39,185 nucleotides of DNA from a virus (lineage: Duplodnaviria; Caudoviricetes). Positions within the stretch are counted from its first letter, which is position 1, and every line of letters starts with the position of its first letter. Below the pieces are notes generated by a model, which saw only the letters and a list, made by a program, of their open reading frames with translations, did not search any database and was not told where the DNA came from. Position numbers and translations under genes: made by a program. The stretch spans positions 1-39,185 of the IMG/VR virus record IMGVR_UViG_3300028587_000004; one strand, written 5' to 3'. Below are positions 18,488-23,884 of the stretch, piece after piece.

Positions 18488-19480
18488 ATGGCTACATTTG
18501 CCAACTTGAGTGACATCGTTACCACTACCATCCAAAACCGTTCGGGTGTTCTGGCTGACAACGTTACTAACAACAATGCACTGCTGAAGAAGCTGAAGGA
18601 ACGCGGCAACGTCAAGACTGTATCCGGCGGTAACGTGATTCTTCAAGAGTTGATGTACAACGACCCGAACACTGAGAACTCCGGTTCTTACTCGGGCTAC
18701 GATGTCATTGACATTACCCCGAACAGCCCGATTTCCTCGGCTCAGTTTGACCTGAAGCAATACGCTGCTGCTGTCTCCATGTCCGGTCTTGAAATGCTCC
18801 AAAACAGCGGTAAAGAGCAGATTATCGACCTGATGGAAGGCCGTATCGAAGTTGCCGAAGCCCAACTGATGAACGACATCAACACTGGTCTGTATTCGGA
18901 TGGTACGGGTAACGGCGGTAAGGATATTACGGGTCTGGCTGCTGCTGTATCGACCTCGCCGGCTACGGGTACTTATGGTGGTATCTCCCGTGTCAATTGG
19001 TCTTTCTGGCGTAACGTTGCTTTTGATGCAACCACCGATGGCGGCGCTGCTGCTTCCTCGGCCAATATCCAGTCGTACATGAATCGCGTGGCCGTTCAAT
19101 TGGTTCGCGGTACTGATCGTCCGGATATGATCGTTGCTGACAACAACTACTACCGTTATTACCTAGAAAGCCTGCAAGCTATCCAACGTGTTACCTCGGA
19201 AAGCTCGGCTGGTGCTGGCTTCACCTCGCTCAAGTACTTCGGTGCTGGATTCAACTGCGATGTGTTCCTAGACGGTGGTATCGGTGGCGCTATCAGCACT
19301 AACCGCATGTACTTCCTGAATACCAAGTACCTGTTCTTCCGCCCTCACAAGGATCGTAACTTCGTTCCGATTGGTGGTGATCGTCAGAGCGTGAATCAAG
19401 ATGCCGTTGTCAAGCTGATTGGCTGGGCTGGTAACTTGACCTCCTCGGGCGTCCGCTATCAAGGGGTTTTGACGGATTGA
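18488..19480 (+). CDS. major capsid protein
   Basis: 330 aa; TTTIQNRS..LADNV, YSDGTG, strong AAGGAG RBS and high-expression codon bias. Confidence 0.9.
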   Translation: MATFANLSDIVTTTIQNRSGVLADNVTNNNALLKKLKERGNVKTVSGGNVILQELMYNDPNTENSGSYSGYDVIDITPNSPISSAQFDLKQYAAAVSMSGLEMLQNSGKEQIIDLMEGRIEVAEAQLMNDINTGLYSDGTGNGGKDITGLAAAVSTSPATGTYGGISRVNWSFWRNVAFDATTDGGAAASSANIQSYMNRVAVQLVRGTDRPDMIVADNNYYRYYLESLQAIQRVTSESSAGAGFTSLKYFGAGFNCDVFLDGGIGGAISTNRMYFLNTKYLFFRPHKDRNFVPIGGDRQSVNQDAVVKLIGWAGNLTSSGVRYQGVLTD

Positions 19481-20826: not shown

Positions 20827-21729
20827 ATGACCTTACTAGAGCTGATTCAACAAGTCACTGGAGAACTCGGGCTAACTCAACCTAATATGGTTGTAGGCTC
20901 GACTGACCCGCAAATTATCCAATTTCTGGCTTTGTTGAATCGGCTCGGTAATGACCTGACCCGTCAGTTCGACTGGGAGCGCCTTAACAACGAGTACATC
21001 ATCAATACCGTTACCCTGACCACGACAGGCGACACGGTAGAAGGATCTGCAGTTATCACGAATATTCCTGATACCTCTACCTTCTCAACTCAGTACGCAA
21101 TTCAAGGTAATGGGATTACGGAGTTTTCACAGATTGAGTCTGTGGATAACTTGACTACCGTAACCATGACCATGCCGGCTACTGCCACGGCGACGGGTGT
21201 TACGCTGGAATTCGGGCAGGTTCAATACAGTCTCCCTGATGACTGGATGAAGCAAATCCCACAGACTGAATGGGACCGTACTAACCGCTGGCCTTTGATG
21301 GGACCGAATACCCCTCAAGAATGGCAATCCTTTAAATCGGGGATTGTCTATGCTGGGCCTCGCGTTCGTTTTCGCATTCTCGATAGAGCAATTACCCTAA
21401 ACCCGATTCCGGGTAATGGCTGGGTCTTTGCTTATGAGTACATTTCTAGCTATTGGGCACTTAGTGATACTGGCGTCCGTAAGGCTAAATTCACTGCAGA
21501 CACCGATACATCTATTTGGCCGGATTCCCTCTTAATCACGGGTCTAAAAGCTCAGTGGAAGGCCTCTAAGGGTCTGGATGGTACGTTTGACTTCGGTGAG
21601 TTCCGTGGCCTTCTAGAACAATGTAAGGCTCAAGACAAGAGCGCCAAGAAGTTGAGTCTTAGCCCTGTAGGGACGACTGTACTGCTGACTACCGCTAATT
21701 TACCCGATGGTTTTTTCCCGAGTAACTAA
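20827..21729 (+). CDS. head-tail adaptor (tail tubular protein A-like)
   Basis: MTLLELIQQ...YSLPDDW...; position before the nozzle gene. Confidence 0.7.
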   Translation: MTLLELIQQVTGELGLTQPNMVVGSTDPQIIQFLALLNRLGNDLTRQFDWERLNNEYIINTVTLTTTGDTVEGSAVITNIPDTSTFSTQYAIQGNGITEFSQIESVDNLTTVTMTMPATATATGVTLEFGQVQYSLPDDWMKQIPQTEWDRTNRWPLMGPNTPQEWQSFKSGIVYAGPRVRFRILDRAITLNPIPGNGWVFAYEYISSYWALSDTGVRKAKFTADTDTSIWPDSLLITGLKAQWKASKGLDGTFDFGEFRGLLEQCKAQDKSAKKLSLSPVGTTVLLTTANLPDGFFPSN

Positions 21730-21731
21730 CG

Positions 21732-22361
21732 ATGGTTACGCCTAAATTCAAAACCACATCTGTCGCGGCGCATGTAAATAGTTCATATGTGTTGCCACCG
21801 GGTTCTATTTTTAATCTTGCTAATTTGCTGATGGCTAATGCCAAAAGATTGAGAAATAATTGCAACCTTTTCGCCCATTTCAAGTCGGCAGCGAATTTCA
21901 AGCACTTGTTCCGCAGTAAGTTTTGCAGACGGGCATCGCTCTCCAAGATTTGCGGTTCCATGCCTAACAGCGTCTTTCATGTTGCTGGATGCCGTGTCAT
22001 ATCTAAGATTGCTAAGAGCATTATTGGATGGGTTCCCGTCGTAATGGCAAGTAACAAGCCCCTCTGGTCTATTTCCTACAAACGTGAGCATAATTACATG
22101 ATGCAAACGAATAACGGTCACGCAGTAATCTTTACACAAAGAAACTTGCTGCCGAAGATCGTCCTTGCAAGTTATTGGCTTAAGGAGTTTTCCTTTTATG
22201 CGTCTAGAAATACCGCTTTGCGTGAATACTACGCGGTCAAGGCTTCGCACTCTGCCAAGATCAGATGCTTCGTAAAGACCCTCGTAGCCGGGAATTGCTT
22301 TCCAGTTCTCTTCCATGTGCTTGCTCCTTTAACTCATTATAAGCGAGTGGCGCAATGGTAA
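21732..22361 (+). other. stop-free 209-codon ORF antisense to the HNH gene, starting with the relic N-terminus of the tail gene
   Basis: Begins MVTPKFKTTS like 22355; its stop overlaps ATG 22355. Confidence 0.55.
21783..22316 (-). mobile_element. NUMOD4-HNH homing endonuclease gene
   Basis: WKAIPGYEGLYEASDLGRVRS (NUMOD4), CHYDGNPSNNALSNLRY (HNH), C-terminal HTH; own TATAAT and AAAGGAG upstream. Confidence 0.92.
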
Positions 22362-23884
22362 CGCCAAAATTTAAAACTACCAGCATACCAAGCCCGATAG
22401 GAGGAATTAATGATCGAGACTCTATCGCCGACATGCCGCCTACTGATGCGGTAGTCTTGGAGAACTGGTGGCCTTACCCTTCCTATTGTGGTATTCGCAA
22501 GGGTAAATTGAACCATGTAACCGGGTTTGTAAGCCCTGTAGAAACGCTGGTCGAGTACCTTCCGACTGATGGGGTATCTACTTTATTTGCGGCGGCTGGA
22601 ACGTCTATTTATGACGTAACGGCAGAGGGGCCTTTAGGTGCTGCTGTACAGACAGGTTTAACCAATGCACGTTTCCAAGACGTACAGATAACAACTCCCG
22701 GTGGTAGCTTCTTATACCTGTTCAATGGCGCTGACTCTCCCCGTCTTTGGGATGGTACTACTTGGACCGCTGTAACTGGAGTATCAACACCTGCTATCAC
22801 AGGCCTGACTACATCCGAAATTATTCATGGTTGTGTCTTCAAGAACAGACTATTCCTTGTCACTATCGACAGTCTCGAGCTTGCCTATCTACCCGTCTTG
22901 AGTATTGGTGGTGCTGCTTCATTCCTTGATCTTGGGTCGATATTCCGCCACGGTGGTTACATCATGGCCGTCTATCCTTGGACGATTGACGCAGGGGACG
23001 GGGTCGATGATCACCTTGTAGTCATCTCGTCAATGGGGGAAATCGCCGTCTATCGAGGAACTGATCCTTCATCCTCCTCTACTTGGCAGCTTGTCGGTGT
23101 GTGGATGCTCGGGAAACCTATTGGCCGAAGGTGTGGGGTCAAGTTCGGTGGTGATCTAGCCATGAATACTACGGAAGGCGTCTATCCGCTCGGCAAGGGT
23201 CTTTTGTCGGCTTCTGTTGATCGCCGGGTAGCACTGACAGACAAGATTCAGAACTCAGTTTCCATCGCGGCAAACTCCTTCTATAGCAATTTTGGTTGGC
23301 AGTTGTGTCTATATCCTGATGCAAATATGTTAATCCTCAACATTCCTTCTACTTCTCAGAAGTACCAGTACGCTCAAAATACCATTACAGGGGCGTGGGC
23401 TAAATTCACAGGCTGGGCGGCTAACGTCTGGCTGAATGCCTCGACAGGTCTTTACTTTGGGAACTCGACCACTGTTTCTAAAGCATGGACGGGGAACCTT
23501 GACGACTCAACTCCGATTCAAGCGGATTGCCTACCCGCTTTTAGTTATTTCGGGAGTAAGTCGTTTAACAAGTATTTCACAATGGTTCGCCCTTATATCC
23601 AGACCAGCGGAACCCCGTCAATTCTCTACGGATTGAATACCAATTATCTAGCCCAGCCTGCAACTGGGAGCCTAAGTTACACACCCCCCACCGGGATGGT
23701 TTGGGGTTCTATGGTTTGGGGTTCTATGGTTTGGGGTGGTTCATTAGCTCAAGTCACTGGATGGAATACCGTAGGGGCTGTAGCTAACTCTGCTGCCCTC
23801 CGTTTAAAGGTTCAAGGGAACGGTGCTGATGTGCAATTTTCAAACGTTGATTATGTCTGGCAATCCTCTAACGGTGTTCTGTGA
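22355..23884 (+). CDS. tail nozzle / DNA stabilisation protein (P22 gp10 or tubular B-like)
   Basis: 509 aa, beta-propeller-like; PSPIGGIN.D, FKNRLF motifs; position. Confidence 0.75.
   Translation: MVTPKFKTTSIPSPIGGINDRDSIADMPPTDAVVLENWWPYPSYCGIRKGKLNHVTGFVSPVETLVEYLPTDGVSTLFAAAGTSIYDVTAEGPLGAAVQTGLTNARFQDVQITTPGGSFLYLFNGADSPRLWDGTTWTAVTGVSTPAITGLTTSEIIHGCVFKNRLFLVTIDSLELAYLPVLSIGGAASFLDLGSIFRHGGYIMAVYPWTIDAGDGVDDHLVVISSMGEIAVYRGTDPSSSSTWQLVGVWMLGKPIGRRCGVKFGGDLAMNTTEGVYPLGKGLLSASVDRRVALTDKIQNSVSIAANSFYSNFGWQLCLYPDANMLILNIPSTSQKYQYAQNTITGAWAKFTGWAANVWLNASTGLYFGNSTTVSKAWTGNLDDSTPIQADCLPAFSYFGSKSFNKYFTMVRPYIQTSGTPSILYGLNTNYLAQPATGSLSYTPPTGMVWGSMVWGSMVWGGSLAQVTGWNTVGAVANSAALRLKVQGNGADVQFSNVDYVWQSSNGVL

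Follow-up and report, generated by a model that had tools for sequence, protein, structure and literature searches.

A stop-free frame antisense to an HNH endonuclease gene as a probable ribosome relay between two virion genes of a phage

Where an HNH endonuclease gene lies on the opposite strand between the adaptor and nozzle genes of phages, the strand that faces it commonly carries a reading frame which is free of stop codons throughout and which ends at or very near the start of the following gene. This open bridge is real, selected and widespread at the adaptor-nozzle junction, where it represents one common solution and not a requirement. From sequence comparison, the bridge probably acts as a ribosome relay which keeps translation of the nozzle gene coupled to that of the adaptor gene. 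The case from which the analysis starts lies in a window of 39,185 bases, the whole of the stretch of DNA that was analysed, which is a complete virus record with terminal repeats present. The features of the window on which the argument depends are as follows.

20827..21729, + strand: head-tail adaptor gene, the upstream partner (Pfam SU10_adaptor PF24175, E 9.7e-08; phrog_6013, tail protein)
21732..22361, + strand: stop-free bridge frame of 209 codons, codon-aligned with the antisense HNH gene (ORF and codon counts)
21732..21782, + strand: probable relic of the nozzle gene 5' end, 17 codons (comparison with the new start; L058 and L081)
21783..22316, − strand: free-standing NUMOD4 + HNH_3 gene of the I-HmuI type, intact (Pfam PF07463, E 1.4e-15; PF13392, E 3.4e-09)
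22324..22330, − strand: Shine-Dalgarno (SD) site of the HNH gene (sequence; −7.9 kcal/mol)
22336..22341, − strand: perfect sigma-70 −10 hexamer 5' of the HNH gene, a candidate promoter only (sequence; no −35 match)
22355..22361, + strand: 7 nt shared by the end of the bridge frame (stop codon) and the beginning of the nozzle gene (start codon) (sequence)
22355..23884, + strand: nozzle or tail-hub gene (P22 gp10-like) with a recoded new start (AlphaFold model, Foldseek, GenBank relatives)

The late operon is of the podovirus type, in which the portal, major head and adaptor genes are followed by the gene at 22355-23884, an acetyltransferase-like gene, virion protein genes and lysis genes. The product of 22355-23884 is modelled by AlphaFold as a beta-propeller, and since the best structural matches of this model in Foldseek are phage tail complexes, namely those of Pan3, Pa223, P22, Sf6, VP1 and Pam1 (E 1.8e-10 to 2e-07), it is named here a nozzle; a search of its sequence profile against the PDB returned no match. 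Its GenBank relatives are labelled tubular tail B, head closure or stabilization protein. The label of 'amidase', which the family bears in PHROG 5107 and which some RefSeq relatives share, is contradicted by the P22 gp10-like nozzle fold.

The HNH gene, of 177 aa, is antisense between the adaptor and nozzle genes and sits inside the 5' end of the latter. Its closest solved structure is that of I-HmuI (PDB 1u3e, E 1.2e-11), with the motif of which residues H91, N99 and N112 align, such that the catalytic His and Asn are present; the Asp that precedes the motif His is replaced by Cys, as it is in most relatives. The gene appears to be a homing endonuclease gene with its own promoter and SD site on the other strand, although the −10 hexamer at 22336..22341 is absent from the list that a two-hexamer promoter scan returned. 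There are no Rfam intron matches in the window stretch, and no Pfam intein family matches the bridge frame. The distribution of the gene is patchy, in that it is found in 5 of 67 measurable nozzle loci and is absent from the other 62. The closest protein relative (P0002) stands at 76%, and the nearest relative with DNA (L161) is 56% identical; a scan of viral contigs directly for the HNH yielded a single weak match. A public contig agrees with the whole of the window without a difference, although it may itself be where this DNA comes from. The joint expected of an empty allele of exactly this phage was found in none of three public DNA runs, two of which cover only 4 of 30 bins.

It is probable that the HNH gene was inserted into the 5' end of the nozzle gene and that a second start then took over. 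The first ten residues of the relic are identical to those of the new nozzle start; 22 of the 30 underlying nucleotides match and all six codons that differ are synonymous, while the last seven relic codons have drifted. The break point follows an S-I-P-x-x-V-G-G stretch and is common to the window, L058 and L081, and it is this shared position, together with the duplicated start, which points to entry of the HNH gene into the nozzle 5' end. A relic is found in only two of the clusters examined, and other clusters bridge without one. L058 contains a single frameshift within its HNH gene, with the + frame open in both halves, and in L081 a run of G shifts the relic out of the bridge frame; assembly error, decay or slippage are possible in both.

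The adaptor-nozzle junction is tight by default. The sample in this regard comprised 78 nozzle loci of viral contigs (the best 80 of 118 stretches) and three adaptor loci, of which 67 were measurable. In 60 of the 62 loci without an HNH gene the upstream stop lies −2 to +7 nt from the nozzle ATG, across about 24 distinct junction sequences, and the tightness holds both for the adaptor as upstream gene and for a variable co-directional insert in that position. Such an insert, a gene of 87-600 aa which abuts both neighbours, is found between adaptor and nozzle in about 30 loci (within L002-L077); its N-terminal start is usually conserved and its C-terminal parts are swapped, as in an insertion hotspot with polymorphic cargo.

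The preliminary description of this DNA had depicted the bridge as a 209-codon frame that starts 2 nt past the adaptor stop, runs through the whole of the antisense HNH gene and overlaps the nozzle ATG. This depiction holds in each part: the adaptor stop ends at 21729 and the ATG is at 21732, the ORF at 21732-22361 encodes 209 aa, and its end, CAA TGG TAA, shares 7 nt with the nozzle gene. The lack of an obvious SD site at the relic start is likewise seen (−2.5 kcal/mol against an E. coli-type anti-SD sequence, almost none). The SD site at 22355, which had been called only weak, does form a broken duplex, of −5.1 kcal/mol, but values little different from this (−5.4 to −5.6) are found at many of the ordinary genes in the window. 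The nozzle start at 22355 is predicted to be partly paired.

The HNH and bridge frames are codon-aligned, and a stop in the bridge is therefore a TTA, CTA or TCA codon in the HNH gene. Upon recounting, none of these occurs among its 16 Leu codons (CTT 12, CTC 2, TTG 2) or its 14 Ser codons (TCT 6, AGC 6, TCC 2), as had first been counted. CTA is indeed common elsewhere in the phage: 51 other likely genes use it for 168 of their 846 Leu codons, and the stop-equivalent codons make up 29% of Leu and 16% of Ser in these genes. From the codon use of the window, the chance of finding 0 of 30 stop-equivalent Leu and Ser codons is 3.5e-4; similarly, a model built from 44 co-directional HNH relatives places about 8.7 stops in this HNH gene, with P(0) about 5e-4. 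Moreover, A occupies 20 of 56 of the other four-fold sites in the gene as against 0 of 22 at CTN/TCN, and the remaining two + frames across it contain 7 and 15 stops.

The preliminary description had proposed a comparison with HNH homologues in other settings, on the grounds that equal openness of their antisense frames regardless of context would count against selection. Openness proves to be dependent on context. The comparison drew on 216 HNH loci from three scans (the best 80 of at least 586 matches, the best 80 of at least 558, and all 56), which together with the window and five loci from the nozzle scan form 195 clusters at 80% identity, nine of them short or broken and dropped. The strands of neighbouring genes were called by a crude ORF scorer of our own, by which 44 clusters are co-directional, 30 antisense within an operon and 5 convergent, with 107 of the 186 unclassed. 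Among the matches listed, the frame is open in 13 of the 30 antisense-in-operon clusters versus 4 of the 44 co-directional ones, all four of GC at least 0.60 (Fisher p 0.0014, such p-values being too small because the clusters are related); it is open in 0 of 5 convergent and 14 of 107 unclassed clusters. A beta-binomial model in GC and A3, fitted on the 44 co-directional clusters, expects 1.4 open clusters among the 30, and 10 of 27 are open when the window and the two nozzle-picked clusters are set aside.

The other 17 of the 30 antisense-in-operon clusters carry stops, some of them between virion genes (L098, L118, L149), and there is no bridge in an alternative frame in these closed HNH genes, since 17 of 17 have stops in all three frames. 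From the PHROG labels of 67 neighbours, bridges precede nozzle, head-closure, major-head and tail genes; closed HNH genes follow endolysin and terminase genes and are also found at some tail junctions. The bridged layout occurs on separate branches, ahead of a major head gene (L116), of head closure genes (L140, L246) and of a tail gene (L190). To place the 17 bridged genes on a quick tree takes 11 changes, just two of them required by branches with good support; several independent origins of bridges are likely, not proven.

Several further observations were made in these loci. No cultured phage with a bridge was found in the four HNH-bearing GenBank records examined of 1443 matches, all four being co-directional. 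In Microcystis phage Mae-Yong1326-1 (L403:1492-2022) a co-directional HNH gene occupies the equivalent junction, between tail-tube and stabilization-protein genes, overlapping the upstream gene and lying 9 nt from the next. Closed antisense HNH genes after endolysin or terminase genes have two conserved motifs 5' of the HNH start (L100, L101, L184-L186, L189; L108, L132, L133, L158, L196), which are possibly structured RNAs or promoters. The only firm RNA match is to Rfam int-alpA, above the gathering score and directly 5' of the HNH gene in L055:1047-1114, L058:2181-2248 and L059:2139-2206 (−), and the bridge frame crosses it stop-free in L055 and L059.

The same junction was then considered across relatives, in a set of 79 loci with an antisense HNH gene near adaptor or nozzle homologues, which form 37 clusters at 90% identity; the clusters share ancestry, such that counts over them overstate independence. 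The frame is fully open in 29 of the 37, four have one TGA, and the last four have 2, 3, 4 and 9 stops. Within these HNH genes A is found at 13 of 424 CTN/TCN sites (3%) versus 538 of 1983 other four-fold sites (27%). At the same loci, TTA, CTA and TCA account for 684 of 2644 Leu and Ser codons in the next gene (26%) and for 22 of 695 in the HNH gene (3%); over 36 rows, these 22 compare with 182 expected. The four-fold sites are some 60-65% diverged between clusters, and so openness has outlived extensive third-position change. The claim that selection keeps the frame open is thereby supported, both by the dependence of openness on context and by the depletion of stops in this frame only.

The end of the frame also appears to be placed. 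Where a start was called for the next gene, 33 of 35 clusters have their first bridge-frame stop no more than 7 nt from that start, as compared with 4 and 1 in the other frames, and this proximity is found in 15 of 17 configurations of spacer length and offset, with offsets of −3 to +7. The stop keeps to the next start even though the spacers range from 34 to 117 nt, which argues that it is placed and rules out a conserved fusion; all three phases with respect to the next gene are seen among relatives. In the window, L335 and L342 the nearby stop is out of frame, and the frame is ended by another stop which overlaps the ATG. L161, in which the HNH gene stands before a nozzle gene, contains nine stops, and its frame ends 87 nt short of the nozzle start. 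The closed cases are scattered within the open group in a quick tree and look like losses. An in-frame restart 15-21 nt past the stop is present in two of the four single-stop clusters: in L310-L315, L330 and L360 the TGA is at about codon 135 of the bridge, and L313, L330 and L360 have an in-frame start at that distance beyond it, such that a two-piece relay is possible in these three.

Some features of the two ends come without cost. The ATG near the upstream stop is often a free by-product of the C-terminal His codon of the HNH gene, and is found also in the closed L108, L133 and L196, whilst the stop beside the nozzle ATG is in many loci the reverse of the −10-like box of the HNH gene. At several loci the upstream stop and the bridge start are 10-25 nt apart, a gap close to or beyond the limit for coupling, as far as the available part of the literature describes it. 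Could the whole frame then be a by-product of chance, of HNH codon bias or of promoter geometry? In many loci such a box does place a stop triplet close to the ATG, GC-rich HNH genes are often open by chance (as is L403, of GC 0.75, co-directional, with 0 stops), and in the major capsid gene of the window (18488-19480) codon bias alone has left 225 antisense codons in a row without a stop, a caution for any such ORF. The HNH gene of the window, however, has a GC content of 44% and prefers A in third positions, and the depletion of stops is 8- to 9-fold, in one frame and one context only, against both paired and model controls. The by-product reading is largely refuted, and it would be a considerable surprise were it correct.

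The length of the frame, with its start and stop, might instead suggest a functional overprinted protein of 209 residues, a reading to which very little probability is attached. Antisense identity does slightly exceed that of controls in some bins (48% in bridged versus 44% in control pairs at 70-80% HNH identity), a small excess that the restricted Leu and Ser codons could produce; overall it decays much as in the control pairs, which are few (12) but similar. A change at a four-fold site of the HNH gene alters a residue of the bridge; about 60-65% of these sites differ between the members of bridged pairs, which is near saturation and is matched in the controls. The peptide has no Pfam or PHROG matches, its composition is lopsided (29 K+R, 3 D+E), and both of its ends differ completely among relatives; its single-sequence AlphaFold model (pLDDT 39.7), which has no alignment behind it, is not informative. 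An overprinted antisense gene is not supported, in that the divergence test finds no purifying selection on a second protein. To judge by these comparisons, selection acts on openness and on the end points of the frame and not on the sequence of the peptide.

It had also been suggested that a −1 shift at the junction would give a fusion protein. This suggestion fails, as a slippery heptamer is lacking and the stop at 22340 confines any shift to four codons; relatives, whose stops take each of the three phases with respect to the next gene, contradict it further. The same evidence bears on the broader reading in which −1 frameshifting, read-through, bypass or splicing joins the relic start to the nozzle. 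The duplicated N-terminus would permit rejoining in register, and the nozzle frame is indeed −1 to the bridge, yet with four open −1 codons, three phases, no Rfam intron and relics in only two clusters any such joining is scarcely credible.

The function most consistent with these data is that of the ribosome relay. Ribosomes which finish the adaptor would re-initiate at 21732, make a disposable peptide of 209 residues across the HNH gene, terminate at 22359-22361 and re-initiate at 22355 to translate the nozzle gene. The same traffic would shield the 623 inserted bases from Rho and nucleases, and in this way the relay could let the HNH gene persist inside an essential virion operon. The stops and starts of each putatively coupled pair are close, with a gap of 2 nt at the left end and an overlap of 7 nt at the right. 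According to the available part of PMC10666635, translational coupling requires an overlap or a very short distance, and hence the right end fits well, as does the left end in the window.

Of the two roles that the preliminary description had offered, translational coupling or avoidance of Rho polarity, the tracking of the next start by the stop favours coupling over anti-polarity alone, although we infer both. The main rival to the relay, and one partly compatible with it, is that the frame is translated only as cover for the mRNA against Rho polarity or nucleases, with the nozzle gene using its own SD site and coupling being incidental. Such cover would account for the depletion of stops equally well, and the stop is TGA in all four single-stop clusters. 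TGA is in general the leakiest of the stop codons. There is, moreover, an SD-like site at most bridged nozzles, and open and closed cases are not told apart by their SD energies (median −5.5 versus −1.5 to −5.6), so most bridged nozzles could start on their own. Polarity is known to follow untranslated RNA (PMC12548453, in the portion available). Cover alone, however, needs no stop near the next ATG, which 33 of 35 clusters nonetheless have with spacers of 34-117 nt, and there is little excess of C over G on the + strand across the HNH gene. On balance this rival is rather unlikely, and the relay is preferred to it.

A different kind of protection would be that the traffic guards the late mRNA from pairing with an antisense transcript of the HNH gene, or that it damps HNH expression. 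The HNH gene has its own SD site and a −10-like hexamer on the other strand, and antisense transcripts of inverted endonuclease genes are noted as a hazard in the accessible text of PMC2988022. Many antisense HNH genes with similar signals have closed frames, however, and only a small probability is given to this explanation.

If the relay is correct, then it describes a long frame that is selected for openness and placement while its product is free to change, with a natural control built in. It would explain how selfish genes persist unspliced inside essential, tightly coupled virion operons, and bridges would mark those phage gene junctions for which coupling, or else cover by ribosomes, is important. 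One silent base change would then suffice to test how coupling contributes to virion stoichiometry. There is also a warning, in that long antisense ORFs of this type would be neither noise nor new proteins, and a suggestion of a route by which genes might be inserted into phage operons without polarity. Whether antisense relay ORFs are a general and repeatedly evolved means of sparing the host, open to homing endonuclease genes beside introns and inteins, and whether the same HNH family may switch to an antisense-in-intein form, are proposals that we entertain at slightly less than even weight; if true, the relay would be a stepping stone between free-standing and intein-borne endonucleases.

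Taken with what is known of other systems, the bridge would be an apparently new form of known host-sparing strategies. In the literature searched, in which subscription journals are mostly uncovered, no account was found of an antisense endonuclease gene that stands free and has a relay ORF adjoining the gene on either side. The T4 seg and mob genes and I-HmuI-type genes are likewise HNH genes without an intron that sit inside essential phage genes or between them and that are patchily distributed in related phages. The segD gene of T4 shares the antisense position, with a virion gene on either side (PMC2988022, available part), but, unlike the HNH gene of the window, it has no bridge, with nine antisense stops and longest + ORFs of 34-48 aa; the coupling treated in the same part of that paper serves expression of the endonuclease itself and not a relay across it.

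Closer in form are inteins with an antisense endonuclease, in which the host strand also keeps an open frame with a junk product; there, however, the frame belongs to the host protein, from which its product is removed by splicing (bioRxiv 2025.01.02.630785, as far as available). For the window an intein is rejected, as the frame ends in a stop, is out of the nozzle frame and has no intein match. Two HNH relatives do appear to have the antisense-in-intein form, each lying antisense within an apparent mini-intein of a terminase-like gene (L173, about 2-1519, −; L213, 1-1559, −); the Pfam intein match of L213 is weak (E 1.5e-05, under the cut-off) and the L173 query missed the N-terminal block. 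The available text of the same preprint describes this layout for other nucleases. The ShiLan HNH genes in phage methylases are alike in that the insertion adds no stop to the host frame and brings a short duplication of host residues, but they share the strand of the host gene, are out of frame with it and are kept as an in-frame loop of a single protein that is not essential (PMC11855218, available part). An arrangement of the ShiLan type is rejected for the window, where the HNH gene is on the opposite strand and the host ORF restarts at a new ATG.

The nearest likenesses in mechanism come from bacteria. In Bacillus subtilis the translation of the comEB ORF, and not the ComEB product, is needed by the next gene, comEB being an ordinary conserved gene in contrast to the antisense frame of a mobile element (bioRxiv 2020.12.30.424838, in the part available). 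The mycobacterial MIRU repeats are mobile elements at a start codon with an ORF that is coupled to the downstream gene, a coupling thought to spare expression of that gene (PMC12548453, in the sections available). MIRUs, as described there, are short repeats, whereas the putative relay of the window is about 200 codons long, is overprinted antisense to an enzyme gene and abuts the host genes on both sides.
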